Shown: positions 6,740 to 22,895 of the stretch, piece after piece
Numbering within the stretch: the first letter of the stretch is position 1
Layout of the letters: each line of letters begins with the position of its first letter
From: a phage
Length of the DNA: 64,000 nucleotides
Direction: 5' to 3' (one strand)
NCBI GenBank assembly: GCA_011939005.1
Contig: GCA_011939005.1_4858.1
The notes under the pieces: generated by a model
What the model saw: only the letters and a program-made list of their open reading frames with translations
Database searches by the model: none
Told to the model about the DNA's origin: nothing
Position numbers and translations under genes: made by a program

Positions 6740-9700
6740 ATGAAAACGTATCCTTACGATCCTCGGGGTGTAAATCCTGAGTGTCACTTCATCGAGGAAC
6801 GTATCATCGACTCCGACAATCCTAACGATCGGGTGGTGATGCTAGATCATCGCCCGTTTTTCGAAGGATTGGTGGTAAGGCTCGCCGGCTCGTCCATACC
6901 GCTTACCCGCGGGACGGACTATGAGCTGGAGTATGCTTTAACACCGTTGGACGACTCGGTGACGACCCCGGTGTTTTGCGGGGTGCATCTTATTAACCCT
7001 AAACTGCGTGGTGCGGTGGTCTTTGAAGGCCAGATGCTCGGGGGTACGTTTTACAGTGGTTTGATTGAGATGTTGGATGAGCTAGTTAAGGCACTCAACA
7101 ATCCAACGGCTGCAGATTGGCTGCTTTTAGGTAATCGACCTTCCCTGTACCCAGCCACCCCTGCAGCGGTGGCTTGGTCAGACATGCTGAATAAAAAGTA
7201 TGTTGCCTCTGCAGTGCATGATGTGGAGTTAGATGCCGGGGCGGCCAACGAGCAGATTCGTGAAAAGCTTACTGAGCTGAAAGATGCGGTTTTGGGCTTA
7301 GGAACTGAAATCGCCGCATTTAACTACCCCGGACACATTGCGTCGACTAACCCTCATGGGACTACCGCGGCGCAGGCCGGTGCGCATCCTGTCAACCTGA
7401 AAACGCCAGATACTTTCCTGGCGTATGGAAAGACGTTGCGTCAGTTAACCAGCGAGGTCCGTGCACTGGGTCTGCAACAATCGGATATCGACAAGTACAT
7501 TTCTAAATGGGTATCGAAAGAATCCAAAGGGGTGTTTAATGCGACGATATCCGGTACTCGTGCCCTGTTCCGTTCTCCTGCTGGTGAATCCGAAATTGTG
7601 TTCTCTGCTGAGGCATTCACTCTTAAATCTAATGGCTCTGTTGTGTTGGCGTGTGGGTATGCCGACACTACTGGAACCGTCCGGTTTATGGAGTGGAAAG
7701 CAGGCATCAATACATTACGTATTGAGTCGACTGGCAGTGCCTTGGGGATGGATAAGCTGACGCTTAATGGTACGACGTTACTGACCACAACTGCTCTCAT
7801 GGGCTATCAACAAGACCCTGGTACCGGCGGTGGTACCGTTGACCCGGATGACAACAAACTGTACATTAGCGGGGTGAACGGCATCACTTTCACGGGTAAA
7901 GGGTCAAAAGCCGATCCCGTCACCGGGAAGGTCACAGCCAAACCCGCGACGACCTCTGAACCAGGCGTTGTGACGCTGACTGATAAGCCGAGCGATGTAG
8001 TCAAAGGGCAAGCAGCCACCCCGTCGGCGCTTTTGCCGTATGAGGGCGACCTGTCTTCGTACGTCAGGAAGACAACGCTGCTGAATAACCAGCCGATGAA
8101 CACTGGTAGTCGAACGCTGACGAAAAAGGATTTAGGTTTAGACTTGGCTGATAACACAGCTGACGTCGATAAACCACTTTCTGATGCGTTGGCAGAAGCA
8201 GTTACCGGTCTTAGTGATAAAGGTCACCATCACAACTTCGCTGATTTACAGATTCCAACAGCCTCTCAAACTGTGCCAGGTATCGCACGATACTCTACCA
8301 ACTTAAACGGCTTGGCGGATAATCGCGGCGTTACCCCGAATGTTCTGAACGATCTGTCAAAACGTTTAGACGTAGTTGCAGCTGCGCTAGCAAACGCGAA
8401 AGAGGATTCCGTGACCGATTTTGCCGCTGTGCGTGGTAAGACTTGGACTGTGGGATCTACACGTACCACCCTCGCCGTAACGGATTTGAATTATTTCTAT
8501 CTGTTAAATGGTGCACGTAAAGAGGGGACGGTATCTGGTTCGATAGACCTGCAAACCACCCCGATGTTCCAGTGGTTCTCTCCAGATAACCGTATGGAAA
8601 GAACGTGGCAGAACGCGGTAATTAATATCGGTGACGGTATTGATTTTAGTGGGTTTGAGGTTGCCGTCCCGGAAACGAACTACGGTGCGCAGATTGGGTT
8701 AACGGCAACCGGCATGGGTGACTTATCGGTTGTTAACCTTTTAGCAAAAACGTGGGTTCGTTGCGATACAGGTAAACTACGTATTTGGGTTCGTGGCGGT
8801 GGTGCTGTTTCTGTTTATCTGGACGGTGTAATTATCGGTGCGGGTATTACAGAAGCGGGGTATCTGGAGGCGACTGTCAAAGAGGGGTGGAAGCAACATT
8901 GCCTGGCGTTTCGTGCGGAATGTAACAATAGCGCGAAAGCAGCTGCTATACGCTTCACCATTTACGATGGTGATTACCCGGTTGCGGTGTCGGACAAAAA
9001 CACCAAAGTTGCCCGCCTGCAGGAGTTTGTTAAGACCGCGAACGGTTTACGACATTATCTTTACGTGAACATGATAACCAACGCATTGTATTCACGTGCG
9101 GAACCCATTGTGGACACGGAAGGTATTAACCTGGAGCGTGGGTACATTGGTTACATTGATGTACCCGAGACGGGATTGGTTGCAGGTACGACTTACGAGT
9201 TTGAAACGACGTTTGATTTTGGCATGGCGTCCGAACTTAAACGGCACTTCGAAACACGTCTGGCGCACGGAGTGAGTAATGCCGACTGGTCGTTGACGGA
9301 TAACCCAAAAATGTTACCGCTAAACAAAGTCGATCCGTTGCCTAAACAGTGGCTTTATGCGTACCCTAATAGTCCAGTTTCTGGTAACCACTATATTCGA
9401 TTAGACCGAGGGTTATTCGATTATAAATTTGATAGTACCATTTCAAGCCTAGTGTTTGTTGGAGCGGTTGTCTCCACAGAAAGCGCATCACCGTACTGCT
9501 GGTTTACACCAAGCAACCCGAAAGAAAAAGGGATGGCGACGTTTGAAGGTTCTGTGGTGGTCGATGTTGATTTGTCGGAAGCACAAACAGTTCGCGTTCG
9601 CGATATCACATTAAACTTCATGGCCCCGTCTGCAGATGATAAAAGCAAGACCAGGGTACTGAGATGGAGTGGCAATCGTCCAGAATTGAATTGTGGCTTC

Positions 9701-10870
9701 ATCACGTCTCCTTATAACCAAGCAACTGGAGGCATCATCTCGACCACGCAGGGCAGTGTTACAAATAAGGTGCTTGAAAATCCGAGGGTAATTAAAAACC
9801 TGACGAGCCAATCTACCGAGTGTTTAGATTTTCTTTCGGTTCATACCGATAGTGAGCTTGCGCCGCTTGGAGATCGTTGGCTTGTACGTTATCGATACAT
9901 TGTTGATACGCAGGTACTGCGCATCTCAATGGTTTCTAAGTTGATAGCCAATCCGCTGGTGCAGGTTTACGAAATGGAATACGACATTCCGTTTGATGCG
10001 ATCGATTACTTTAAAGGTGGGGCGCTAGCCATCCACGTTTCCGGTATTGAAACTGGAGACAACGTGACTATTAACCACGGTTTGATGCAGCCGATCATCT
10101 CAGATGTGGATATAAATCGTTTCCATTATTTACGTTCACTGTTTGAGTCGTATATTGAAAGGACACCAGATAGACAGTCTTCCGGCCACGAGGAGATGAC
10201 AGTAACAACGGTACCTTTTGCGTCATTTGGAGATAACGTTGATCACCCGGTTACGGAATACATCACGATGTCTGCTGCAAGTGAGGGTTATCCGGAACTT
10301 GCACCGAACGGTAAACTCCCAGCGCCGTTTTATAAAGGGCTGCAGAAACGTGGTGCTCCGCTACTTGAGTCGGCTCCTGCCGACTATACGTCTAACGGTG
10401 GTGAATGGAAGTACGGCTTTATGCGGACTTATCGCCCGACTCAAACTGAGCGTTTTGTGTCGGTAAATGGGACAATGCTCTCTAACTACCCCGGATATAT
10501 CGTCGTGGGTAGTGAGAAAATTCCGGGTAATGTTATACCTTTCAGTGCGTCGACAACAGCTGTTCGGATATCCAGGACTCTTGCCCGCACGAAACCGATG
10601 CAGCCAATTCACATCGTGTTCGTGCCTCCGGAAGGTTCTGTGCCGCCGCTGCAAGCGAAGTTCACTATTAATGGTGTGGGTAGTAGTGGTAATCCGATGT
10701 TCGTGATTACTGAAACGACACCGGTGGAACTTCGCACGGGTGGCGAGACGATTCTCATTGAGAAGCGTAATCCATTCCACATCCCCACCAGGACATGGGA
10801 TTGGATTTTACAAACGTTGGATACTGAACGTAGAAACGAAGGCAACAACTCGGGTGAGTGGGCCTCTTAG
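6740..10870 (+). CDS. tail fiber protein (1376 aa) with phage-fibre repeats
   Basis: RBS AAGGAG; shared N-terminal module; repeats of type TSEPGVVTLTDKPSD...AATPSAL and HHHNFADL...GIARYSTN resemble the Phage_fiber_2 repeat. Confidence 0.65.
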   Translation: MKTYPYDPRGVNPECHFIEERIIDSDNPNDRVVMLDHRPFFEGLVVRLAGSSIPLTRGTDYELEYALTPLDDSVTTPVFCGVHLINPKLRGAVVFEGQMLGGTFYSGLIEMLDELVKALNNPTAADWLLLGNRPSLYPATPAAVAWSDMLNKKYVASAVHDVELDAGAANEQIREKLTELKDAVLGLGTEIAAFNYPGHIASTNPHGTTAAQAGAHPVNLKTPDTFLAYGKTLRQLTSEVRALGLQQSDIDKYISKWVSKESKGVFNATISGTRALFRSPAGESEIVFSAEAFTLKSNGSVVLACGYADTTGTVRFMEWKAGINTLRIESTGSALGMDKLTLNGTTLLTTTALMGYQQDPGTGGGTVDPDDNKLYISGVNGITFTGKGSKADPVTGKVTAKPATTSEPGVVTLTDKPSDVVKGQAATPSALLPYEGDLSSYVRKTTLLNNQPMNTGSRTLTKKDLGLDLADNTADVDKPLSDALAEAVTGLSDKGHHHNFADLQIPTASQTVPGIARYSTNLNGLADNRGVTPNVLNDLSKRLDVVAAALANAKEDSVTDFAAVRGKTWTVGSTRTTLAVTDLNYFYLLNGARKEGTVSGSIDLQTTPMFQWFSPDNRMERTWQNAVINIGDGIDFSGFEVAVPETNYGAQIGLTATGMGDLSVVNLLAKTWVRCDTGKLRIWVRGGGAVSVYLDGVIIGAGITEAGYLEATVKEGWKQHCLAFRAECNNSAKAAAIRFTIYDGDYPVAVSDKNTKVARLQEFVKTANGLRHYLYVNMITNALYSRAEPIVDTEGINLERGYIGYIDVPETGLVAGTTYEFETTFDFGMASELKRHFETRLAHGVSNADWSLTDNPKMLPLNKVDPLPKQWLYAYPNSPVSGNHYIRLDRGLFDYKFDSTISSLVFVGAVVSTESASPYCWFTPSNPKEKGMATFEGSVVVDVDLSEAQTVRVRDITLNFMAPSADDKSKTRVLRWSGNRPELNCGFITSPYNQATGGIISTTQGSVTNKVLENPRVIKNLTSQSTECLDFLSVHTDSELAPLGDRWLVRYRYIVDTQVLRISMVSKLIANPLVQVYEMEYDIPFDAIDYFKGGALAIHVSGIETGDNVTINHGLMQPIISDVDINRFHYLRSLFESYIERTPDRQSSGHEEMTVTTVPFASFGDNVDHPVTEYITMSAASEGYPELAPNGKLPAPFYKGLQKRGAPLLESAPADYTSNGGEWKYGFMRTYRPTQTERFVSVNGTMLSNYPGYIVVGSEKIPGNVIPFSASTTAVRISRTLARTKPMQPIHIVFVPPEGSVPPLQAKFTINGVGSSGNPMFVITETTPVELRTGGETILIEKRNPFHIPTRTWDWILQTLDTERRNEGNNSGEWAS

Positions 10871-10965
10871 GACGGACTGCCTACGGGCGGGTAGTCCGTA
10901 GGTAAACCGCCCTTCCGTTATTGGGAGGGCGGTCTCCGTTTTATTACAGATTAGGAGTGTTTGCA
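10871..10965 (+). other. structured intergenic region with nested hairpins between fiber genes
   Basis: Inverted repeats CCTACGG/CCGTAGG and CCGCCC(T)TCC/GGAGGGCGG followed by T-rich tract. Confidence 0.4.
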
Positions 10966-13900
10966 ATGCCGAGAGAAGATGCGGCGCAGTTTAACGGTAC
11001 CCTCAGTACCGCTACTTACCCGAACCGTTATTCGACGGTCATTCCCGTCGAAGCACCGTTCTATCGCATCGGGTTAACGTTAACCGTTACCGATAAAACA
11101 ACCGGAACCAAACGCAAGTTAATAGAAGGTCTTGATTATTTCTTAGGACATTACTTCCAGGAATTAGCCGAGGCTGAGAACGATGCAATATACGGCAGCA
11201 TAATGCTGCTGAACGCCACAGAGGTAGAATACGAGTTATTGTCGGTTGGTCGACAGTATCGCATCCCTGCTTCTGAAATCGGCAAGTATCTGGTTAAGAC
11301 GGATATGAAAGACCCGCGCAACTGCGATTGGTCTGAGCTGATGAAATATCCGCCGATTATCTCGCCAATCGACCCGCCAAAAGATCTCGAAGAAGCCATC
11401 CTTCGCGATGAAATCGTAAAGGCGTTGGAAGATATCCGTCTGGGTATTTTAGAACGTGCCCACGAACTGGATGAGGCTTTTGCGGAAGTTACTGATTTGA
11501 TTTATCAGAACGGTAAAAAGGTGTTTGATGACGAAATGTATCAACACCACCTGATTAAAAATGCACATGGTTACACCTGCGGTGACATTGGCGCTCTCCC
11601 GGTACTCGGCAAAGCCGTAGATGCGACTAAGGCATTCGGACGTACCCTGGCAGAGCTAGTGACGTTAATGTCTACCAGTGGCATCCAACAGAAACACGTT
11701 GACATGCTTCTGGATAATACCCTGGGTGATTTACTGGGCCGTATGCGTGTTCTGAATAACGACGCGATTACGTTCCAAACAACGTCTGGTCACGTTATCA
11801 GCATGAAGGGTGAGAAGTTCATCATCACCTCGACAAAACCGCTGGTATTAAAAGCTGACCAGGATAACAACGAACCGGGTATCGCTACGGAGTTCAGTGC
11901 TGGTCTGAACACGCTTTGGGTTCACTCGGGTAAAGCAGGTGACAAGTGGGGCGCTTATGATGCAGGTGTGCTTGCACCTGTGTATAACAGCGTGTATCTC
12001 GTTACGCCGGATATGGTTAAGATGTACTTGACCTCGGTGAAGATACTTCCAGCAAACGCCTACTTCAAGTCCAGCGACACGTTGAAGATTTACGGCTCTG
12101 GTAAAGAAACAAACAAACTTTACATGAATGCGGAGCTGCCTGCAGCAACCACAACTGTGCAGGGTTTGTTTGCGATTACTAACCTTTCGGCGTCCGCTGC
12201 AGCATCCACAGCGATTTCCCAAAAAGCTGTTACTGACTTGAAGAACAAACTCGACGGATATGTGGACGACACGTATACAGTCAACGGTAAAGGGTTTGTA
12301 TTAGATTCAAACGGGCAGATGCATCTGACCTTAACCGCGGCAGATTTCGGTATTGAGAAGATGAACAATACCGGGCCGCTGGAGAAACCGGTTACTAATG
12401 CGTTGCGCACCGTGCTATCTGGCAAAGCGCTTACAACGCACACCCACACCATTGCCGATCTCGATAACGTGCCGTACGCATCCACGTCTGTTACAGGTTT
12501 GGCTAAACTGTGGGATGCTATTGACACCACAACAGATAAGATGGTTACTTCGCGTCAAGGCTTCTTGCTTGAACAGAAGATTGACACGCTGAATGACAAG
12601 ATTGCTACGTTATTACCGGCGTGGACTGTCGGCGGATCATCGTACGGCAACAATAACTTCTTGCCTATACCTGTCCAGGGGAACTACGAAGGGTATACCA
12701 AAAACCAAACCTGGCAGAAAGGTTTGGCGCGTTACGAGTCTGGTAAGGTTTACTCGCTCCGTAACGGTTCTAACGGGAACCCACCAGGTGACTGGGCTAT
12801 CTATTACGCCTATGCTGATGTGTCGCCAAGCAATACGCTGGAAAATATGCAGCAGACGTCCGTACGCTATCGACCCGCTGGAATGTCGGCGTATCCTGGG
12901 GTGAATCTGGTTGCTATTGTGATTACCGGTACCGATGCAATGATCTGCTTAGGCAGTGACGGTGCGTACTACCTGGTCATCTTCGATGGGACGATTGACC
13001 ATGCAAAACATCATCGTGTTGTTAAAGTGGTGTTGGGTGATTACAAGAACGGTAATGGTGCGGGCACAGTAACGACAGCACCGTGGGCTCCAAACGCTTC
13101 TACAGACGATTTGATTGTTTGTAATGAACGTGTCTACCTGTTGCGTACGGTGCTTACCTCCGGTAACTATTTCGTGAGTATGCGTAGCATCGCACTCAAC
13201 GAACTTAATCTGGGTGGCAGCAACACGTTTGTGGCGGATGCGTTAACAGGCGGGATATTAACGTCGGGTGAAAACGTTTATCTGCGACAGGGACAGAAAC
13301 GTGCACCTTCCGATGCGCTCCCAGCACCAGTTACACAGATCTACGCAGACGCGTTAGCGAAGTGGAACAATGCAACCAACTTTGTACATGGTCCTGAGTG
13401 TAATCACGCGATTGGTGTTGATGGGCTGAGCTTTCGTGTTGGTTTAACTCCAACGGTTTGGTTTGCTTCTACTACAGGGCAAACTATTAACTTTAAACAA
13501 TGGGTGTCAAGCTTTGTTGTCGACTGTAGCGCATTAACGGTAACGCTGGAAGGGGCTGATCGATTCCCTATTGTGGCTGATCTTACCACGGTTCGTTATA
13601 ACGGTGGTACTGAGATTGGGATTCCAAGCCGGAAGTGGGGCGAAGGTCAAGCTAATAACCGAACCTTTGCAACATCGCAAGACAAGTATATCGTTTCGCA
13701 GGGACATGCAGGCGATCGCGACCTAATGCCAATTGTCACGATTACCACGTTAGACGACGGTGTGAGTTGGTACGAGTACCTGTCGTGCGACTACAACTTC
13801 ACTGCCAGAAGTTTTAGTGCGGTAATGTTAAACCAAGGTCGTGGTTCTATCTACGAGCTAGGTATGGCGTATCCACTGACTCTGGGAGCGAATTCCAGAC

Positions 13901-16149
13901 TTATCTGGTTGTCACAGCCACGTTCCCGTTTGGCAATTGAAGTTGAGTTTGATCCGAACACCACTTACTCAGGTAAGGTGGGGTATGGCCCAACTAACAA
14001 TCGTCGTGTAGTAGATTCTATCACGTATGAGAATCTGTCGCAGATGTGCCACATTGTTACACCGGCGTCGCCTGGTACAGAGTTAAACGGCTGGTATTGC
14101 ACAGGGCCAGAAACATTCCCTTACCACAACGTTTCTGGCACTTTCACGATTCATGCCGATCGGTTGACGCTGTCACAGGCCGAATGGGATAAGATGAAGC
14201 AGATGATCATCGACGGTGCACCGGCAGGCGCTGCGAATGGTTATGCTTCGGAATTTATCCTTGCCGCAAATAACGCAGGAAAGGCATTGTTCTCCGTTTG
14301 GTTCATCGGCATTGGTACGGCCACACCGCTCACGTTAGCACAAGTAGCATGTACGCGTACTGTGAACAACGTTAACGTGTTGGATATCTACTACTTTACA
14401 CTGAAACCAACAATCAGCAACGGGCAGGTAACATTCCCCGCAGCGATATTGGCTTTGTTTGACTTCTATAACAACCTCGACTATAGCTTGAACTATGCTA
14501 CGTTGGGTGAGATAACGGGAGGAAAAACACGCCGGCCGGGACAACCTACCTTGGTGTCAGTAGATGGTACTCAGTTCGGGTTGTATCTTCCACACACGTT
14601 AACCTTGCGCCAAATTGGCGACTTGGGTGCGCTTAACTACGCTGTTGGTCTTACGCTGTCTAATGGTACTTGGACGCGTTCTTCTGCTCCACACGGCGTT
14701 GGACGTATGGCACCGTCACACACTCCAGTCAGTCCAGCTTATCTGGCACATCGCGATCAAGTGATGTTACACAACTCATCTCTCGACTACGTCTATTGTG
14801 GTGGTATCGCAACGCCGTCGAGAGATTTTGTCGCGGCTCCTAATTTTAGTGGCCCGACTGAATCGGTTGTCATTGCTGGTGTGGAAACAGCTGAAGGTTG
14901 GCTGGTATATGTGACTGAGGAAGTTGACCTGCGTTTCGGCTCGAGCACTTATAAGCTGCCTACGTGGTATATTGACCTCAGCGCAGCATTTCCAACAAAC
15001 CATCAGAACCGGACATTCTACCTGCACGCCAAGGTAGAAAATGGTACACCGAAGTACGTAATGGACGTGGTTCAACATCCAGACACTGAAACGGAACTCT
15101 ACATCGGGTATGTTAAAACGGGCTCGTCGCGAGTCGTCGAGACTAACGTCGAACATGCTAAGCGATTGGGGGCGGTGAAACAACTGTTGGAACATGCGGC
15201 GGTTGAGAATAAGCATGATGTGGAGGTGGGAAGGGATGCGGCAACGGGCAGACTGGCACCATTGCGTAAAGAAGCGATGGGTCCTTTGTCTATCGATGCT
15301 ACGAAAGGCTATCTGGATAGTCAGTTGCTTTATACCGTATCTGACGCACAGCGTCGCGGTAAACCGATGGTCTCCAAACGTTTCGAAGGCTTGAAAACTT
15401 TGCCGGCGTTTACTCAGGCAAACAAGTCGGGGGCGTTTTGGAAACATCCTACAACAATTGCGACGGTAACGGCCGATGAGAACGGTGAAGCGGCATCGTT
15501 GGGAATGGAGTGGGTGGGTATCCCTACGCCTGCTTTCTCTCCGACCTCAGGAATGATGATAGTGGTGATACAAAGTAAATTCGTCGTCCCAGGTACACCG
15601 GGAGTAGAAACGACCTTTAATGTCAACATCGCCCCATGGGATACGGTAGATAGATTTTTCTACAACGTCGAGGCGGAAGGTAAGGATGTTAACATTGAAG
15701 AAAATCCAGAAGTGCTAATGCCGACACCACATACCGTGTATCACAAACAGCATTCTCTGCCCGCAGGCGTGCCATGTACGTTTACTTTCGCTGCTGTGTT
15801 GAGTTCCCCAGCGCTTGAGATGGCCAACCAGCATATTTGCTCTTGGCTTTTCACGGACGCGGGGGGACTACCAATCACCACCGATCTTTCGGATAGTAAG
15901 ATTCAAATCTTACCATTGGGGGGAGAGACCTACGGCACACCAGTTGTTTTGAACAGCCGTAGCTACACGTTTGTGGATGTGGCGGGTGCAATTCCGGTTG
16001 TTACCACGGGCGCTCAGGGTTTATTCCCACCACCGATCGTGGCGTGGGATGGCGATGATCTTACGTTAACGATTGCGCACGATTGGGTGAACGAGAGAGG
16101 ATGGCAACAGCCTGATATTATCCAGGTCAATCTTATGTTCCGTACCTAA
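10966..16149 (+). CDS. tail fiber protein (about 1727 aa from internal ATG)
   Basis: ORF track starts at an upstream non-ATG codon; ATG at 10966 has RBS TAGGAG; shared N-terminal module; fibre-repeat-like segments (HTHTIADLDNVPYASTSVTGLAKLWDA). Confidence 0.65.
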   Translation: MPREDAAQFNGTLSTATYPNRYSTVIPVEAPFYRIGLTLTVTDKTTGTKRKLIEGLDYFLGHYFQELAEAENDAIYGSIMLLNATEVEYELLSVGRQYRIPASEIGKYLVKTDMKDPRNCDWSELMKYPPIISPIDPPKDLEEAILRDEIVKALEDIRLGILERAHELDEAFAEVTDLIYQNGKKVFDDEMYQHHLIKNAHGYTCGDIGALPVLGKAVDATKAFGRTLAELVTLMSTSGIQQKHVDMLLDNTLGDLLGRMRVLNNDAITFQTTSGHVISMKGEKFIITSTKPLVLKADQDNNEPGIATEFSAGLNTLWVHSGKAGDKWGAYDAGVLAPVYNSVYLVTPDMVKMYLTSVKILPANAYFKSSDTLKIYGSGKETNKLYMNAELPAATTTVQGLFAITNLSASAAASTAISQKAVTDLKNKLDGYVDDTYTVNGKGFVLDSNGQMHLTLTAADFGIEKMNNTGPLEKPVTNALRTVLSGKALTTHTHTIADLDNVPYASTSVTGLAKLWDAIDTTTDKMVTSRQGFLLEQKIDTLNDKIATLLPAWTVGGSSYGNNNFLPIPVQGNYEGYTKNQTWQKGLARYESGKVYSLRNGSNGNPPGDWAIYYAYADVSPSNTLENMQQTSVRYRPAGMSAYPGVNLVAIVITGTDAMICLGSDGAYYLVIFDGTIDHAKHHRVVKVVLGDYKNGNGAGTVTTAPWAPNASTDDLIVCNERVYLLRTVLTSGNYFVSMRSIALNELNLGGSNTFVADALTGGILTSGENVYLRQGQKRAPSDALPAPVTQIYADALAKWNNATNFVHGPECNHAIGVDGLSFRVGLTPTVWFASTTGQTINFKQWVSSFVVDCSALTVTLEGADRFPIVADLTTVRYNGGTEIGIPSRKWGEGQANNRTFATSQDKYIVSQGHAGDRDLMPIVTITTLDDGVSWYEYLSCDYNFTARSFSAVMLNQGRGSIYELGMAYPLTLGANSRLIWLSQPRSRLAIEVEFDPNTTYSGKVGYGPTNNRRVVDSITYENLSQMCHIVTPASPGTELNGWYCTGPETFPYHNVSGTFTIHADRLTLSQAEWDKMKQMIIDGAPAGAANGYASEFILAANNAGKALFSVWFIGIGTATPLTLAQVACTRTVNNVNVLDIYYFTLKPTISNGQVTFPAAILALFDFYNNLDYSLNYATLGEITGGKTRRPGQPTLVSVDGTQFGLYLPHTLTLRQIGDLGALNYAVGLTLSNGTWTRSSAPHGVGRMAPSHTPVSPAYLAHRDQVMLHNSSLDYVYCGGIATPSRDFVAAPNFSGPTESVVIAGVETAEGWLVYVTEEVDLRFGSSTYKLPTWYIDLSAAFPTNHQNRTFYLHAKVENGTPKYVMDVVQHPDTETELYIGYVKTGSSRVVETNVEHAKRLGAVKQLLEHAAVENKHDVEVGRDAATGRLAPLRKEAMGPLSIDATKGYLDSQLLYTVSDAQRRGKPMVSKRFEGLKTLPAFTQANKSGAFWKHPTTIATVTADENGEAASLGMEWVGIPTPAFSPTSGMMIVVIQSKFVVPGTPGVETTFNVNIAPWDTVDRFFYNVEAEGKDVNIEENPEVLMPTPHTVYHKQHSLPAGVPCTFTFAAVLSSPALEMANQHICSWLFTDAGGLPITTDLSDSKIQILPLGGETYGTPVVLNSRSYTFVDVAGAIPVVTTGAQGLFPPPIVAWDGDDLTLTIAHDWVNERGWQQPDIIQVNLMFRT

Positions 16150-16196
16150 CAGATAGCGCTATGGGGCAAGGAAGCCCCAATCAAAGGAGTTTGGCA

Positions 16197-17399
16197 ATGG
16201 CCGAAATCATTTATCAGTACCCGCTCGACCTTACCGGGACATTAACGTCGAACGCCGTTACGCGGCGTATTACGTTAGGTTCTGGTAAAGTTAACCGGGC
16301 TTTTGCATTTCCTGACGGAGCTTTCTACGCGGATACCTTCCGCTTGGCGGCTGCGAATAAACCAGGTGTCTACCCGTACAAACGCGGCACAGACTACGAA
16401 CTGATTTTTGCACATACTGCATATCAGAAAATGACCAAGAACCGCGAAGTGGTCATGGGTGTGGTGGTAACTAACTCGGCCATTCCTACTGATATCGAAG
16501 TCTCTGCGCAAGTCGTTGGTGGTTTTCAGTCCGCGAACGTCGAAGGCATCCGACAAGCGATTGCGTCGTTGAAAATTGAAGACCGCGTGGTGGACTTCAA
16601 GGATCTTCGAAACGTACCCGATACGTTCCCGTCCGCACCGACGTATAAAGACCTTGGCGATATCTACGGTTTTGAGTATATCATTACCGTACTCGCGGGG
16701 ATTAAAGATGCGATTAACTCCGGCTCTGCAGTACAGCTGGAAGAAATTAAAGGTATTCTGGGTGGTCTGAAAAACGACTTCCTCGACGCCTTAAATGCCC
16801 ACATCAACGCCGAAGGTAACGTACACAATCTCGACATTCATCAGGTTAATGGCCTGACGGAGACGGAGATTCGTGCCCTGATTCAAAGTGTACAGACTGC
16901 CATTGACGCCACCATCAAAGATATCGGCGACTTAAGAGCAGCAGACACAGCGTTGGGGCAACGCATCGATGCAATTGTGGCTTCGTTAGCCGCGTGGAAC
17001 GACCAGCTTAACGTGGTTGCTCAAAATTACCAGAAAATGTCGTTAGCATTAGCTAACCTTAATTCTCTGGTGTTGCAATTACAGAAGATGGTTAACGATC
17101 TTCAGTCTGCACTGAATAAAACAAATCAGCGCGTCACGGATCTTGAGAATCAGGGCAAAGACTTCCAACAGCAAATTGATAACCTGCAAGGACAAATCAA
17201 CAGTCTTAAAACTCAGGTTGTAAATAACACCAACGCAATTTCGCAGGCAAACCAGAATCTGGCGAACCATGCGGCTGCGGATAACCCACACCCGAATTAC
17301 CTCCATAAACAGTATGGCGGTGTTGTGCAGGCTGCTGTTCACGTCAACAACAACCTCACCTCGCGCGACGATGTTCAAGCTGAAGCGGGTACTAAGTAA
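16197..17399 (+). CDS. fiber-associated coiled-coil protein (about 400 aa)
   Basis: Internal ATG with RBS AAAGGAG; shared N-terminal module (GTDYEL); long heptad-like Q/N/L-rich C-terminal region. Confidence 0.55.
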   Translation: MAEIIYQYPLDLTGTLTSNAVTRRITLGSGKVNRAFAFPDGAFYADTFRLAAANKPGVYPYKRGTDYELIFAHTAYQKMTKNREVVMGVVVTNSAIPTDIEVSAQVVGGFQSANVEGIRQAIASLKIEDRVVDFKDLRNVPDTFPSAPTYKDLGDIYGFEYIITVLAGIKDAINSGSAVQLEEIKGILGGLKNDFLDALNAHINAEGNVHNLDIHQVNGLTETEIRALIQSVQTAIDATIKDIGDLRAADTALGQRIDAIVASLAAWNDQLNVVAQNYQKMSLALANLNSLVLQLQKMVNDLQSALNKTNQRVTDLENQGKDFQQQIDNLQGQINSLKTQVVNNTNAISQANQNLANHAAADNPHPNYLHKQYGGVVQAAVHVNNNLTSRDDVQAEAGTK

Positions 17400-17464: not shown

Positions 17465-17857
17465 ATGGCGATATCTATTAAAGACGTCAGAAACCGCGTC
17501 CAGATAGTCGAAGCTAACATGGCGACAGGCCCCCGCGTCGACGCGCAAGTGGCCTCTAAAGCCCATAATGCGGCAGACCGATTTGGGGGTTGGACGAAAA
17601 CACAGCTAGATTGCGGAGGGACATGTTCTTGGACGTGCTCTAACGGTTGCTCGCATGGCTGTTCGAGCTGTTCAGGAAGCTGTTCTGCTTCTTGTATCGG
17701 TAGCTGTTCTTCGACGTGTGGCGGTAACTGTTCTGGTTGCTCTGGTTGTTCTGGTGGTTGCAGTAGTAGCTGTACCGGTAACTGCACAGGTGGTTGCGGT
17801 GGCTCTTGTTCTTCCAATTGTTCCGGAGCCTGCTCCGGTGGCTGTTCAGGTCGCTAA
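17465..17857 (+). CDS. Cys/Ser/Gly tetrad-repeat small protein A (130 aa); candidate RiPP precursor
   Basis: RBS AAGGAAG; N-terminal ~50 aa non-repetitive leader-like region, then about 21 Cys in C-x3 (sometimes C-x2) spacing built only from C/S/G/T/N/A. Confidence 0.6.
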   Translation: MAISIKDVRNRVQIVEANMATGPRVDAQVASKAHNAADRFGGWTKTQLDCGGTCSWTCSNGCSHGCSSCSGSCSASCIGSCSSTCGGNCSGCSGCSGGCSSSCTGNCTGGCGGSCSSNCSGACSGGCSGR

Positions 17858-17867
17858 GGGGGATTAA

Positions 17868-18272
17868 ATGGCAATTGGATTAAAAGAACTGAATAACCGA
17901 TTAAACACGATCGATGCAAACGCTCTAAAGAATACCACGAATGTGCAAAACTACATTCGCAATAAAGCTACGAATAACGCTGACTTGTTCGCAGGTCAAG
18001 GTCGTTCGCACTACGACTGTGGTGGTACGTGTTCTTTTAGCTGCTCAAGTTGCTCTGGCGGGTGTACTGGGTCTGCGACAGGTGGTTGTGGGTCGACTTG
18101 TTCGGCAAACTGTGTATCAGGCTGTAGCAGCAGCTGCACGGGCTGTAGCTCTTCGTGCTCTGGTGGTTGTAGCGGCACGTGCACAGGCAGCTGTTCTGGG
18201 GGTTGTGGTAAATCCTGCTCCGCAAACTGCTCAGGTGCGTGCTCTGGTGGTTGTTCAGGTCCTAACTCCTAA
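17868..18272 (+). CDS. Cys/Ser/Gly tetrad-repeat small protein B (134 aa); candidate RiPP precursor, paralog of A
   Basis: RBS AAGGGGGA; leader-like N-terminus similar to A (I.LK..RNRL), core starts DCGGTCS and ends CSANCSGACSGGCSG, nearly identical to A. Confidence 0.6.
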   Translation: MAIGLKELNNRLNTIDANALKNTTNVQNYIRNKATNNADLFAGQGRSHYDCGGTCSFSCSSCSGGCTGSATGGCGSTCSANCVSGCSSSCTGCSSSCSGGCSGTCTGSCSGGCGKSCSANCSGACSGGCSGPNS

Positions 18273-18287
18273 CTGACGGAGGCTTAT

Positions 18288-18494
18288 GTGATCAGTCTCA
18301 AGACTATTCGAAACCGTCTCGTTACGGCAGAAGGTTACATTACAACCGCACAGGCAAACAACTATATCGCTAACCAGGGCACCGTGTCGACCACAAATAA
18401 CCTGGCTGGCTTACCGCTTTCTCACTATAACTGTAATGGTGGGTGTAGCTGGTCCTGCAGCGGAAGCTGTAGCCGTGGAGCGGGGAATCGATAA
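18288..18494 (+). CDS. short paralog C (68 aa) with truncated Cys-repeat core
   Basis: Apparent GTG start with GGAGG RBS; leader-like region similar to A/B; core NCNGGCSWSCSGSCS. Confidence 0.45.
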   Translation: MISLKTIRNRLVTAEGYITTAQANNYIANQGTVSTTNNLAGLPLSHYNCNGGCSWSCSGSCSRGAGNR

Positions 18495-18516: not shown

Positions 18517-19404
18517 ATGAAAAACGATTTGCATCTTGCGTATAAAACCACATTCAACCACCCGCTGCATCTATCTTCCCCAGATTCAGTGCGTGCACAT
18601 CTCGCTGACAAAGTCAGACTGATTGCACAGATTCCTGGTGAGTGGCCAAAGGTTCGTGGTCGCTTCTTGACCGACAAGAAGAACTACACCGTAGAAAATA
18701 CGTTTAAGATCCGTGATATGGTTGCAGAGGCCATCGTTATCTTTAACGGCGATGGTAACTCTCGCGGCGTGTTGGTTGACGGTAAGTATTTCTTCAGTGA
18801 AGGGATTCTGAACAACAGTGTCGATTTAGAACTGATGTTTACACCGTTTGACGAACTTGAAGCAAAACCGATGGCGCGCCGTTGGTGGAGTCCGGACTAT
18901 CTGGGCTCGTTCCCTTACTACTTTGTACTGGTACCTGCCGATACGGAAACGTATTTCGACACCGAACCATACATCGATATCGAGGGGTATAAAGAACTCG
19001 GCATCACCCGTTTAGCGGACATGATGGCGTATAGCTATAAGTTCGTGTGGGATAAAAAGCGTTCTGTCTGGTATGCGCTGACTGACGATTTTGAAATCAC
19101 CAAGCGTATTCGTAAGCCGTGGATGCAACACCTGGTTCAAACTCGATATGGGGATTACCCGGCGACAGAAGCGGATTTGAGTAAGCTGGTAAGTTTCCTC
19201 TTAACGAAGGTGGATTTAACGAAAGAAGAAGCAGAAGCTGTTTCTGAGATTCGTGGTCGTTCGGTAACGTTGGCCGATTTGAAACGTCTGAACGAAAGAC
19301 ACGCCGACCTGAACAAAATTTTAGCTGCCTATCACGACCCGATGTTACTGGTGCCTGGCGCTAACGTAGACGAAGATCCTTTATTCGCCATTGATTATAT
19401 TTAA
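18517..19404 (+). CDS. hypothetical protein (295 aa) in Cys-peptide/radical-SAM operon
   Basis: RBS GGAG; co-oriented and tightly spaced with neighbours; no motif recognised. Confidence 0.55.
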   Translation: MKNDLHLAYKTTFNHPLHLSSPDSVRAHLADKVRLIAQIPGEWPKVRGRFLTDKKNYTVENTFKIRDMVAEAIVIFNGDGNSRGVLVDGKYFFSEGILNNSVDLELMFTPFDELEAKPMARRWWSPDYLGSFPYYFVLVPADTETYFDTEPYIDIEGYKELGITRLADMMAYSYKFVWDKKRSVWYALTDDFEITKRIRKPWMQHLVQTRYGDYPATEADLSKLVSFLLTKVDLTKEEAEAVSEIRGRSVTLADLKRLNERHADLNKILAAYHDPMLLVPGANVDEDPLFAIDYI

Positions 19405-19426: not shown

Positions 19427-20341
19427 ATGACAGATCAAGTAGAATCCAGGATCTCGTCTGAACTGTACGACAAACCGTCAATTCTGTCGGTTGTCGCAAC
19501 TTCTAAGTGTAACTTAGACTGTAGCTTCTGTGGAGGGGCTTATTACATGGATAGAGAAGATACTTCTCGTGAGTTTCAACGTGAAGAGATTCTCTCGATT
19601 TTAGAGAAGAATCCGGATATCGGTGAGATTCATTGGACGGGCGGTGAGCCGCTGTTAGCGCAGCGCAAGATTGAAGACTTCGTGAACGAGTTGAAGGAGT
19701 CTCATCCGAACCTCCGTCATCACATGTACACCAACGGTTTAAAGATGCGTAAATCACATCTGCCGTTGCTGAAACAGTTCGACCTTATCTTTGTGTCCAT
19801 TGACGGCTACAAGAAGTCGGAACGTCCGTTTATGAACTTTGTAAACGGTGGTAATCACGAAGCGCTGGAAGTGCTGTACGAGCTGGACAACTATTACACC
19901 TGGGGTGTGATGACGCGTGACCAGTTAGGTGATAAACGCTGGTACGAAGATTTCATCGAGCTGCACCGAGCAATCTATCATTACCGTCCAGGTGGTATGT
20001 CGTTGCTGTTTGATGCGATGATGCCGAAACCGTTATCGCCAGACCACGTCATGAACTTCATGTACGGGTATTGGAAAATACTCGACAATATCGAACGCCT
20101 TAACATGCAGAACGATTCTGAATGTGGGCTTGCGATCAGTAAAATGTTCGATACCGAGTGCAACACGTGCAGTGAAGTGCTGTGGCTTAACGCCGACGGT
20201 ACGCAGGAGCAAATTCAGAACGCCCCAGAGATATTGGAAGTCGGCTGTAATCGCCTGGCGCGTTCTATCGGCGTTGATGCGTATAACTACATCAACCGTG
20301 TAATTTCTGCTAAGCGTAAACGGGCGGCGAACAATGAGTAA
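19427..20341 (+). CDS. radical SAM enzyme (about 304 aa)
   Basis: C-x3-C-x2-C (CNLDCSFC) about 28 aa from the internal ATG start (RBS GGAG); GGEPLL motif; extra C-terminal cysteines (CGLA...CNTC...C) suggest an auxiliary cluster. Confidence 0.75.
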   Translation: MTDQVESRISSELYDKPSILSVVATSKCNLDCSFCGGAYYMDREDTSREFQREEILSILEKNPDIGEIHWTGGEPLLAQRKIEDFVNELKESHPNLRHHMYTNGLKMRKSHLPLLKQFDLIFVSIDGYKKSERPFMNFVNGGNHEALEVLYELDNYYTWGVMTRDQLGDKRWYEDFIELHRAIYHYRPGGMSLLFDAMMPKPLSPDHVMNFMYGYWKILDNIERLNMQNDSECGLAISKMFDTECNTCSEVLWLNADGTQEQIQNAPEILEVGCNRLARSIGVDAYNYINRVISAKRKRAANNE

Positions 20342-21662
20342 TAGCGAACAGCAAATCCAGTACACACCACGCACGTATCAGGTTGTGACTAACCTGTCAT
20401 GTAACCTGGACTGCGAATACTGCTACGAGCGTAAATATCCACGCAATAACAAAGTAGCTGACGTGATTGATTTTATCCACGCTTGCTTCGAGCGCGATAA
20501 AGATATCCCGAACGTTGAAGTCATCATCGATATCATCGGTGGTGAGCCGTTCATGCAGCCTAAACTTCTTTTGGCGGCCTTTGAAACCGCAGAGAAGTTA
20601 TGCGCAGAACACAATCGCCCGTATATGTTCAGTATCTCCACGAACGGTACACTTCTGGACCGTCCGCTGAACAAAGAAATTATCGAGCGCTGGAAAGACA
20701 AACTGTCTATTGGGGTCTCCATCGATGGTTTACCTGAAGTCCATGACAAATATCGTATCTTTACCACGACGCGTGAAGGGTCGTACGAAGCTGCGGTACG
20801 TGGTTACAATTATCTGAAGAGTGTTGGCATCGCTGAACTGGGCGTAAAGGCGACGTTTACGATCGATACATTGCCGCACTATGCCGCCAGCATGAAATCG
20901 TTAATTGACATGTCCGGCGGTGGTACCATTTCTGGTAACGTAACGTACGAAGATATCCTACCGCGCCATATGGCGTTGGATATCGCGAACCAGATGATGG
21001 ACGTGATGGACTACTGGATTGAGAAGGGTCTGCACACCAACCCGCGTAACACGATTACACACATCATCCCGGATGGCCTGAACTTTATGGCAACTTGGGA
21101 CCCGGATTGGCGTGACAAACTCTTACATGACGACTCTGTTCGTCTCGACCCAGAACGCCTGAAACCGTACTGCGGTACGTTGACGCACATGACCTGTCTC
21201 GGCTTTGATCGCAAGATTTACGGTTGTAACCGTTTCATGTCCACGGTAACTTCCCGTTCTGCTGTAGCAGAACTGGTCGGTCGTGAGTTTGTGAGCCTGG
21301 ACGGTGGTAAGCTGTTAGAAGAGATTCAAACGCAGTACACCAACTACCCAGAAACCTGTTTAGGGTGTCCGATGAAACACAGTTGCGGTAGCTGCGCGGC
21401 AGCATCGTACGAAAACGGTGAAGGTACACTGGAAGACCGTAAAGCGTATCATGCCGAGCGTCGTCAGTGTGGTTGGACTACTGCGAAGCTGATGGCGGCA
21501 GAATATTGGTATCAGAAAACTGGTACGACCCGCGCATCAGATTTGCATGATAAATCCATGTGCTATTGTTCACGTTGTGTACGCCAACGTGCTGAAGCAG
21601 AAAAATTACAAAACGGAGCCCAGAATGAAGTCAATACTGATTCACAATTTTACGAAGCGTAA
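20334..21662 (+). CDS. radical SAM enzyme with SPASM-like C-terminal domain (442 aa)
   Basis: CNLDCEYC near N-terminus; C-terminal cysteine cluster C-x2-C-x5-C-x2-C plus upstream Cys; start ATG overlaps stop of the upstream radical-SAM gene (translational coupling). Confidence 0.8.
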   Translation: MSNSEQQIQYTPRTYQVVTNLSCNLDCEYCYERKYPRNNKVADVIDFIHACFERDKDIPNVEVIIDIIGGEPFMQPKLLLAAFETAEKLCAEHNRPYMFSISTNGTLLDRPLNKEIIERWKDKLSIGVSIDGLPEVHDKYRIFTTTREGSYEAAVRGYNYLKSVGIAELGVKATFTIDTLPHYAASMKSLIDMSGGGTISGNVTYEDILPRHMALDIANQMMDVMDYWIEKGLHTNPRNTITHIIPDGLNFMATWDPDWRDKLLHDDSVRLDPERLKPYCGTLTHMTCLGFDRKIYGCNRFMSTVTSRSAVAELVGREFVSLDGGKLLEEIQTQYTNYPETCLGCPMKHSCGSCAAASYENGEGTLEDRKAYHAERRQCGWTTAKLMAAEYWYQKTGTTRASDLHDKSMCYCSRCVRQRAEAEKLQNGAQNEVNTDSQFYEA

Positions 21663-22191
21663 ACTGCACTTGGTCGATCGCTTCCTGCGCAAAAGCAAGC
21701 TGTACAATGTGCACGCAATTGTGGCAGGGGAAGACTTCACTGATGAAATCCAAAGCCTGTTGATTAAATACGGGCTGAATGTGATGATCCCGGTCTACTG
21801 CGTTGAGAAAGGACACGAGTCTGTCGCAGAAATCGAAAAGCGCAATCCTGGCTTTGAGAAGCGATTGCTCGCATACCCACGCCACAAAATCGAACTGCTA
21901 CGTCATTCCATCGATGAAGCCAGTCCTGAAAGTTTAGTGGCTTTGGGCTTGTCTTTCCCGCGGATGCGTATTCGTAACTTACGCTCCAATAATCCGGTCG
22001 ACGCGTATTACACAGAGCGTCAAATCTTTGAAGAACATCTGCTCCCGCAGTTGGAAGAAGAAGAGCAACACAACATTTCGTTGTTGTGGGCCGGTAACCT
22101 CGATCAGGACTTCCAGATGCTGGACTTCGGTTTGTTGTTAGAACTTGGCCTGATTGAGGAGGACGAATGTCTGTTACTGACAAAAGCTTAA
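21625..22191 (+). CDS. hypothetical protein (about 188 aa)
   Basis: Internal ATG with RBS GGAG; overlaps end of upstream gene; same operon. Confidence 0.45.
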   Translation: MKSILIHNFTKRKLHLVDRFLRKSKLYNVHAIVAGEDFTDEIQSLLIKYGLNVMIPVYCVEKGHESVAEIEKRNPGFEKRLLAYPRHKIELLRHSIDEASPESLVALGLSFPRMRIRNLRSNNPVDAYYTERQIFEEHLLPQLEEEEQHNISLLWAGNLDQDFQMLDFGLLLELGLIEEDECLLLTKA

Positions 22192-22838
22192 CGAACGAAG
22201 AGATCCGCGCCCGTTATTTCCAGCGCAATTTGCCGATTGACCGACACGGCAACTTCATGGAACGTATCGGTGCAGAGGATCAAGGCCGTACAGGCTTTTG
22301 CGCTCTGCTCCATTATCATCTCATCGAAGGGATGTCTGATAAAGAAGCCCTGGCACGCATGAAGCTGTATGAGATGTCGGAGATTGAAGCTAACTTCACA
22401 TTGAAACGCACGAAAGAGTTTATTGCTAATGTGCTGGAGATTGACCTCGACGAAATTCGCGGGAATCTAAAATCTACCGCACGTTACATTTACGAAGACG
22501 TGCAGAAGATGCTGTTGGAACTCGACCACCGCTACGAAGATGAGCGCCATGGTTATATCGAGTTTGAAGGTAGTCACTTTCAAGCCGATGAATCGTCGCG
22601 TACCATCCTCGGTCAATACATTCAGGCAGATACCGCACCAGAATACTGGCTCGATACGCTGAATACTAAGCACAGTCCGTTTACAGTAGACCAATGTAAA
22701 GCGTTGTTGGGCGCTATTGTTGCACGCGACCAAGTGTTGCACTCAGCAATGGCAGATAACAAACGCCAAATCCGTGAGTTAGCTGAAAAGCGCGATTACA
22801 CTGGATTAAAAACATTGTCCGAGTCACTCGGCATGTAA
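22167..22838 (+). CDS. hypothetical protein (223 aa), last gene of operon
   Basis: RBS GAGGAGG; followed by strong terminator. Confidence 0.5.
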   Translation: MSVTDKSLTNEEIRARYFQRNLPIDRHGNFMERIGAEDQGRTGFCALLHYHLIEGMSDKEALARMKLYEMSEIEANFTLKRTKEFIANVLEIDLDEIRGNLKSTARYIYEDVQKMLLELDHRYEDERHGYIEFEGSHFQADESSRTILGQYIQADTAPEYWLDTLNTKHSPFTVDQCKALLGAIVARDQVLHSAMADNKRQIRELAEKRDYTGLKTLSESLGM

Positions 22839-22852
22839 GCAAAGAAAATAAA

Positions 22853-22895
22853 GGCCCTACCTCCCCGAAGGGAGGTAGGTACCTTTTATTTATTT
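22853..22895. terminator. bidirectional rho-independent terminator
   Basis: 10-bp stem CCTACCTCCC / GGGAGGTAGG with CGAA loop, T-rich on both sides. Confidence 0.7.

Follow-up and report, generated by a model that had tools for sequence, protein, structure and literature searches.

A putative radical-SAM maturation pair beside cysteine-rich proteins in the tail-fibre operon of an SPN3US-like jumbo phage

Two adjacent genes at positions 19427 to 21662 of a 64,000-nucleotide stretch of phage DNA (GenBank assembly GCA_011939005.1, contig GCA_011939005.1_4858.1; the whole stretch is called the window below) encode radical S-adenosylmethionine (SAM) enzymes, here named rSAM1 and rSAM2, which follow an accessory gene and three cysteine-rich open reading frames (ORFs). 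Judged by its sequence, the window is DNA of an SPN3US-like jumbo phage: the 4.8 kb around the pair are 98.5-98.8% identical to Salmonella phage SPN3US, Proteus phage 7 and Escherichia phage EC001, about 25 other Seoulvirus jumbo phages of ~240 kb each fall in the same range, and identity to SPAsTU and Erwinia phage pEa_SNUABM_29 is ~80%. In SPN3US numbering rSAM1 is gp164 and rSAM2 is gp163, the GenBank names being "putative radical SAM superfamily protein 2" and "1". The features at the centre of this study are the following:

17465..17857, + strand: Cys-rich protein 1, 130 residues, 21 Cys (phrog_6085, E 1.5e-40; TIGR04114, 18.9 bits)
17868..18272, + strand: Cys-rich protein 2, 134 residues, 20 Cys, junction motif CGGTCSFSC (phrog_6085; TIGR04114, 17.1 bits)
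18288..18494, + strand: Cys-rich protein 3, 68 residues, GTG start, GGAGG ribosome-binding site (phrog_6085)
18517..19404, + strand: accessory protein (SPN3US gp165), 295 residues (phrog_8030)
19427..20341, + strand: rSAM1 (SPN3US gp164), 304 residues, ATG start, radical-SAM core with a twitch-like C-terminus
20334..20341, + strand: overlap of the rSAM1 stop and the rSAM2 start, 8 nucleotides, ATGAGTAA
20334..21662, + strand: rSAM2 (SPN3US gp163), 442 residues, radical-SAM enzyme with an eight-Cys SPASM-type C-terminal domain

The two radical-SAM enzymes

An earlier sequence-only reading of this DNA had noticed a near-identical CNLDC(S/E)(F/Y)C radical-SAM motif in both enzymes, and the motif is indeed read as CNLDCSFC in rSAM1 (C28-N-L-D-C32-S-F-C35, nucleotides 19508-19531) and CNLDCEYC in rSAM2 (C23-N-L-D-C27-E-Y-C30, nucleotides 20400-20423). 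Each protein also contains GGEP (at residue 72 in rSAM1) and exceeds the 29.5-bit cut-off of Pfam PF04055, with 58.8 bits for rSAM1 and 55.6 for rSAM2. The cluster and GGEP motifs are invariant in homologues of either enzyme, and motifs and Pfam scores together place both in the radical SAM superfamily. The ATG of rSAM1 is preceded at 10 nucleotides by a GGAG ribosome-binding site; an in-frame TTG at 19391 was considered as an alternative start and rejected, as the N-termini of homologues give it no support.

The ATG of rSAM2 sits 5 nucleotides 5′ of the rSAM1 TAA, which confirms the overlap that the same reading had described. Across 12 related loci the two genes either overlap by 1-17 nucleotides or are separated by a gap of 10-13 nucleotides with a strong Shine-Dalgarno sequence; because overlap or tight spacing is conserved, translational coupling, also proposed earlier, is plausible. 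The two maturases are non-identical, as had been said: they share 26% identity, in the N-terminal core only, and a profile-profile comparison of the two families aligned just the N-terminal 150 columns. It follows that rSAM1 and rSAM2 are not recent duplicates, and also that such an alignment is no demonstration that the C-terminus of rSAM1 is a shortened SPASM domain.

In an alignment of 23 rSAM1 homologues (identity down to 40%), C245, C248 and C274 (nucleotides 20159-20248; C-x2-C-x25-C) are the sole invariant Cys beyond the SAM cluster, whereas C233 varies; the twitch-like character first suggested by a short Cys-containing C-terminus thus holds. An AlphaFold model of rSAM1 (predicted local distance difference test, pLDDT, 88.8) shows two strands after the barrel (251-254 and 260-262) and then a helix that starts at residue 275, with the three invariant Cys flanking these elements. 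On this model the C-terminus has twitch topology, that is, a truncated SPASM with one conserved Cys set, and rSAM1 probably has one auxiliary site held by three Cys with an open coordination position. As in CteB, a substrate Cys could occupy the open iron position of a three-Cys auxiliary site. SkfB, MoaA and BtrN, too, have one auxiliary site C-terminal to the barrel, with a beta-hairpin and helix; SkfB and MoaA match rSAM1 structurally, and the three Cys ligands, suggesting an open iron site, recall MoaA in particular. Unlike those enzymes, rSAM1 has the spacing C-x2-C-x25-C, shows no C-terminal sequence similarity to them and belongs to a family found in phages and prophages only. That family is small: of the 5.8 billion proteins in one database 36 belong to it, and an exhaustive profile search returned 16 cluster representatives below 1e-30; nearly all members come from jumbo phages.

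For rSAM2, 27 homologues were aligned (identity down to 32%, prophage and other-phage members included). Eight Cys, namely C280, C288, C298, C342, C345, C351, C354 and C379 (nucleotides 21171-21470), are invariant or nearly so, and we take them to correspond to the cluster ligands of anSME. The C-x2-C-x5-C-x2-C cluster singled out by the sequence-only reading is real and invariant (C342/C345/C351/C354), and forms the central block of this larger set. The AlphaFold model of rSAM2 (pLDDT 87.9) finds CteB as its top structural match (Foldseek E 5e-15), followed by ChlB, anSME, TigE and SuiB. Going by the eight-Cys layout and the full-length structural matches of the model to CteB and anSME, rSAM2 has a full SPASM domain. 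Near its C-terminus, a further C410-x-C412-x2-C415 (CYCSRC, nucleotides 21561-21578) is kept in the jumbo-phage clade and missing from shorter prophage and other-phage relatives; it may be an additional metal site or a substrate-like tail.

Two of the checks that had been proposed for the pair were carried out: auxiliary Cys are conserved in the alignments of both enzyme families, contrary to the outcome that was to refute the reading, and for both models peptide-modifying enzymes rank above nucleotide-acting ones. Across the two models the best matches were the SPASM/twitch enzymes CteB, ChlB, TigE, anSME, SuiB and SkfB, above viperin and MoaA; in the case of rSAM1 the best matches, over 254-264 residues, were peptide maturases, with CteB in the top two (Foldseek). 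At the sequence level rSAM1 has generic NCBIfam matches only (viperin, MoaA, QueE and NrdG models), over ~110 core residues and far under their cut-offs. The best NCBIfam match of rSAM2 is TIGR04115, the radical-SAM peptide maturase family with CXXX-repeat targets (125.6 bits, cut-off 350), then PapB (113.6 bits, cut-off 340), with a geopeptide maturase model third. Membership of rSAM2 in TIGR04115 or PapB was rejected, both cut-offs being missed; by sequence its family is a sister of the TIGR04115 and PapB maturases and a member of neither.

Cysteine-rich proteins and related loci

The first two Cys-rich proteins share one plan. Protein 1 consists of a ~49-residue N-terminal segment, the junction motif CGGTCSWTC and a tract with Cys at every fourth (sometimes third) residue; in protein 2, ~50 N-terminal residues are followed by Cys spaced almost always four apart. 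Together the repeat regions hold 36 C-x3-C units with the consensus C-S-G-(S/G), at a Cys density of 26%. Protein 3 has just the junction motif, CNGGCSWSCSGSC (4 Cys), and ends directly after it, without a repeat tract. The scores of proteins 1 and 2 against TIGR04114, the model for the CXXX-repeat targets, fall just under the cut-off of 20, and phrog_6085, to which all three proteins match, also contains a protein that passes TIGR04114 at 28.9 bits.

None of the three Cys-rich genes is annotated in the RefSeq or the original SPN3US record. Those records instead carry a wrong-frame ORF (gp166/gp100, 17941-18276) across Cys-rich gene 2, and start gp164 at a downstream Met (window position 19546), by which it loses its CxxxCxxC Fe-S motif; the EC001 record (MN445185) has the Cys-rich genes and gp164 correct. 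Alternative frames over the Cys-rich genes (17465-18272) are open for 75-130 residues in every relative (L008-L017), because of the TGY/AGY/GGN composition, and gene callers are easily misled. Since closure of alternative frames in relatives did not discriminate between frames, the choice of frame rests on good ribosome-binding sites, present at all three ORFs, on the family matches and on relatives in which the same frame continues from a longer N-terminal region.

The 295-residue accessory protein gp165, which the sequence-only reading had passed over, is the fourth conserved part of the module. It has no Pfam, NCBIfam or Protein Data Bank sequence match and no named homologue; it is homologous to a 250-residue Deferribacter prophage protein (E 2e-9), has jackhmmer matches in loci L004 and L019/L020, and co-occurs with the short radical-SAM enzyme in distant relatives.

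The order Cys-rich domain, accessory protein, short radical-SAM enzyme, long radical-SAM enzyme recurs at 11 jumbo-phage loci whose rSAM2 identity goes as low as 63%, and protein 1 has exactly 21 Cys at all 11. Outside this clade, a Deferribacter abyssi prophage encodes an rSAM2 homologue (38% identical) downstream of a GpJ-like tail protein, together with a 263-residue, full-length rSAM1 homologue (E 1e-14). Ahead of the 250-residue gp165 homologue and these two enzymes, in the order seen in jumbo phages, the prophage has a 302-residue protein with histidine-containing repeats that ends ...NADQLGGQAGSYYRCSDCSWTCSSSCTGSC... plus 28 Cys, the Cys-rich part being the C-terminus. Similarly, a T4-like contig encodes a 568-residue protein whose C-terminus has this junction and repeat, followed by the accessory protein, an rSAM1-like enzyme and an rSAM2 homologue. 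Prophage and contig thus each have two radical-SAM enzymes and one Cys-rich protein, and in both the long Cys-rich protein lies among tail genes. Pfam found no match in the long Cys-rich and neighbouring fibre-like proteins of the related loci, where only PHROGs were informative. The four-part module of Cys-rich domain, accessory protein, twitch-like enzyme and SPASM enzyme is conserved, with tail genes around it, in several phage lineages that are not related to one another.

A simpler arrangement is found on ~60 further phage contigs, where a TIGR04115-type radical-SAM enzyme (24-27% identical to rSAM2) adjoins a CXXX protein of 110-370 residues with up to 63 Cys. One of these enzymes reaches 470.5 bits against TIGR04115 (L042), above the cut-off of 350, and others score ~300. 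At the three loci inspected among them (L030, L038 and L042), the pair has tail or baseplate-like genes around it, and its neighbour in the unrelated contig L042 is a fibre protein of phrog_2163, the PHROG of gp167 and gp168 (see below). These single-enzyme systems have neither rSAM1 nor a gp165 homologue. The CS(W/F)xC junction motif is present at every two-enzyme locus with a Cys-rich protein in reach, and is missing at the junction position of single-enzyme loci.

Three IMG/VR contigs depart from the common layout. In L017 (IMGVR_UViG_3300045988_078609), from a related jumbo phage, a third radical-SAM gene at 4543-5454, encoding a 303-residue rSAM1 paralogue, lies between Cys-rich genes 1 and 2. 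In L020 (279 kb; 6883-10074), the order is accessory protein, rSAM2, rSAM1, after a 909-residue uncharacterised protein, and the sole candidate substrate is a 97-residue ORF ending GCESCAMGCHGPQ. The 246-kb L059 (2973-12281) has four rSAM2-like genes (278-603 residues) and three Cys-rich proteins with 13, 24 and 36 Cys, a multi-enzyme elaboration of the same theme.

The tail-fibre operon

The six genes described above lie in a 12-kb block of ten co-oriented genes that runs from gp168 to a DUF4376 protein and is enclosed by two strong, GC-rich terminator-like hairpins:

10906..10933, + strand: strong GC-rich terminator-like hairpin, 5′ border of the operon
10921..16149, + strand: gp168-like baseplate/fibre protein, 1742 residues (phrog_7449, phrog_2163), opening the operon
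16161..17399, + strand: gp167-like virion structural protein, 412 residues, coiled coil, fibre-like (phrog_2163, E 4.9e-108)
21625-22191, + strand: gp162-like gene near the end of the operon, overlapping the DUF4376 gene
22167-22838, + strand: DUF4376 protein gene, the final gene of the operon
22856..22879, strand-neutral: bidirectional terminator-like hairpin (10 pairs, 7 of them GC) closing the operon

Between the two hairpins there is no strong GC-rich terminator-like hairpin, just weak matches of 5-7 bp. A scan for sigma-70 promoters gave 6 sites where 16 were expected and is uninformative, as such phages use their own RNA polymerases. The first gene of the operon corresponds to SPN3US gp168, which has been described as a member of the paralogue family of phiKZ gp131 and as a tail baseplate/fibre protein (PMC5105663). 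The gp167-like protein, annotated "virion structural protein 20", also has weak matches to tail-fibre PHROGs. As phrog_2163 is common to gp167 and the N-terminal third of gp168 (10921-17399), the two are paralogous fibre modules.

Predicted maturation of a fibre-associated domain

We consider it fairly probable that rSAM1 and rSAM2 are a maturation pair of the tail-fibre operon that covalently cross-links a fibre-associated Cys-rich domain. Both enzymes would act on the three neighbouring Cys-rich proteins and not on nucleotides. rSAM2, with two predicted fully Cys-ligated auxiliary clusters, would most likely work iteratively along the C-(S/T)-G-x tract and cross-link each Cys, and by analogy with CteB, PapB and QhpD its likeliest chemistry would be the formation of sulfur-to-carbon thioethers. 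rSAM1 together with gp165 would most likely perform a second, distinct modification, for which the junction C-G-G-x-C-S-(W/F)-x-C before the repeats is the favoured target, because this motif is present in every two-enzyme system with a Cys-rich protein in reach, absent from the junction of single-enzyme ones and makes up nearly all of protein 3. Part of the tail fibre would then consist of, or be capped by, a Cys-rich domain with covalent staples that do not depend on redox state; the cross-links would be made in the cytoplasm, whose reducing conditions prevent disulfides, and could in this way yield a rigid Cys-rich fibre element. We infer each of four elements of this scheme: the activity of the enzymes, the type of cross-link, the assignment of an enzyme to a motif, and the presence of the product in the virion.

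Several known systems resemble parts of the scheme. In the TIGR04115/TIGR04114 system, a long radical-SAM/SPASM enzyme likewise adjoins a Cys-x-x-x repeat protein, its enzyme is the best family match of rSAM2, and genuine or near-genuine members are likewise carried by phage contigs, with tail genes around those that were inspected; the match of the window's repeat proteins to TIGR04114 is weak. Unlike that system, the window adds a twitch-like enzyme, a 295-residue accessory protein and the CS(W/F)xC junction motif, and rSAM2 remains distant from the TIGR04115 enzymes in both score and identity. The system is bioinformatically defined in NCBIfam and, to our knowledge, has never been characterised. 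PapB (freyrasin ranthipeptide maturase; NF047865) and CteB (SCIFF/thermocellin thioether synthase; PDB 5wgg/5why) are radical-SAM/SPASM enzymes that make thioethers from repeated Cys, and CteB is the enzyme that both models resemble in structure. However, rSAM2 lacks the N-terminal RRE-like domain, its cluster motif beginning at residue 23; the repeats in the window have no C-x3-D/E motif of the PapB kind; and the substrates are proteins of 68-134 residues or, in relatives, fibre C-termini, instead of short peptides. HxsB/HxsC of the His-Xaa-Ser repeat system provide a parallel for the overall composition, with a long SPASM enzyme beside a short radical-SAM enzyme that lacks SPASM, an accessory protein, and a substrate built of short-period repeats. 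Sequence matches to them are weak (rSAM2 to HxsB, 75.1 bits with a cut-off of 370; rSAM1 to HxsC, 45 bits with a cut-off of 268), and the repeats of the window are Cys-based, no His-x-Ser repeats being found there, in the context of a phage tail module.

A number of observations weigh against the proposed cross-linking of a fibre domain by the pair. rSAM2 has no match to the Pfam SPASM model PF13186 at E<=0.01, nor do the precomputed Pfam assignments of family members contain one, and its scores against TIGR04115 and PapB are far under the cut-offs. The C-terminus of rSAM1 has no sequence-profile similarity to the SPASM domain of rSAM2. The repeat tracts contain no Asp/Glu, the acceptors of PapB, and other Cys chemistries are possible (formylglycine, thio-oxazole). 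What ties rSAM1 to the junction motif is a correlation between lineages that also have ancestry in common. At L020 the enzyme trio lies outside a tail context, next to a 97-residue protein with just three Cys. Finally, the SPN3US reference has no annotation for the Cys-rich genes, which put their products beyond the reach of the published virion proteomes.

An alternative is a classical phage-encoded system for ribosomally synthesised and post-translationally modified peptides (RiPPs), in which the small proteins would be leader-core precursors of peptides that are free, secreted or released by lysis (a bacteriocin, a signal or an agent against competitors) and the position beside fibre genes would be incidental. 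This would fit substrates that in the window are small and stand-alone, with a leader-like N-terminal segment of ~49 residues, and enzymes that both resemble RiPP maturases. We regard it as unlikely: Pfam, NCBIfam and PHROG scans of the operon (10.9-22.9 kb) found no protease, no exporter or transporter family and no immunity gene, and unrelated phages again show the module beside tail genes. Moreover, the 302- and 568-residue proteins among tail genes carry the domain, "leader" segment included, as an in-frame C-terminal fusion. The idea of three substrates put forward by the sequence-only reading therefore stands in part: the adjacent Cys-rich ORFs exist, but they belong to a tail-fibre operon and are not ordinary free RiPP precursors.

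Improbable, too, is that the enzymes are substrate-specific paralogues, each serving a different Cys-rich protein with the same chemistry. The presence of several substrates beside two enzymes would agree with such a division, as would the third radical-SAM gene between Cys-rich genes 1 and 2 in L017. However, the two enzymes are not close paralogues, given their 26% core identity, and differ in auxiliary-cluster architecture, and both the Deferribacter prophage and the T4-like contig keep two radical-SAM enzymes for a single Cys-rich substrate.

A similarly small probability attaches to the view that the Cys tracts bind metal or Fe-S clusters in the manner of metallothioneins, with the enzymes introducing a change other than a cross-link (formylglycine, thio-oxazole) or aiding metal loading. 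The Cys density of the repeats, the structural match to anSME and the geopeptide maturase model as third NCBIfam match are compatible with this. Conversely, the anSME motif C/S-x-P/A-x-R is absent from the Cys-rich proteins, the anSME (TIGR03942; 57.3 bits, cut-off 349) and geopeptide scores of rSAM2 are far under cut-off, and the closest families (TIGR04115, PapB and CteB) are known or predicted cross-linkers. Very improbable is a role without connection to the Cys-rich genes, in which the enzymes, as auxiliary metabolic or anti-defence proteins of the viperin, MoaA or QueE kind, act on nucleotides, transfer RNA or a cofactor: the weak N-terminal matches of rSAM1 to viperin, MoaA, QueE and NrdG, one GenBank record auto-labelled moaA and a literature that usually treats phage radical-SAM genes as metabolic, as for Campylobacter phages (PMC2853527), are set against matches confined to the generic core, best structural matches to peptide maturases over 254-264 residues and strict synteny with Cys-rich proteins across lineages.

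If covalent maturation of a fibre-associated domain is the correct explanation, its implications extend beyond SPN3US. To us the chance is about even that tailed phages use radical-SAM chemistry of the RiPP type on their own virion proteins, with a SPASM maturase converting a CXXX domain at the fibre tip or attached to the fibre into a thioether-type ladder, assisted in the SPN3US-type variant by the twitch-type enzyme and the accessory protein. On that view, stapled fibre or receptor-binding structures would form a new class, widespread in jumbo, T4-like and gut phages, and TIGR04115/TIGR04114 would have its role. The radical-SAM/SPASM enzymes known so far serve small peptide natural products, cofactors and sulfatases; the locus suggests that phage radical-SAM genes, usually dismissed as metabolic add-ons, act in the maturation of structural proteins, a role that would be without precedent in this enzyme class. 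In that case the orphan CXXX-repeat system would gain a function, and a heavily cross-linked, redox-independent fibre element built inside a reducing cell would be explained. SPN3US-like phages, which are under development for therapy and biocontrol, would be seen to carry an unannotated host-recognition component, and radical-SAM enzymology would gain a naturally iterative, highly repetitive substrate along with a two-enzyme system.

Some of this ground was known already: existing records label both genes as radical SAM proteins, and databases contain a model for the CXXX target family. A search of full-text literature found nothing on the module, on the CXXX target family or on a link between radical-SAM enzymes and tail fibres, and of these genes the SPN3US papers mention gp168 alone; the biological role of the module would, if confirmed, be new. 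The comparison also exposes annotation errors in the reference genome that hide the substrates. As a separate observation, several Salmonella phage records (SPFM1, SPFM6-10, SPFM12, SPFM14, SPFM15 and SPFM20) match the region only in ~40 short pieces with 51% coverage, and their radical-SAM and accessory proteins appear frameshifted or scrambled, which suggests low-quality assemblies and not true variants.

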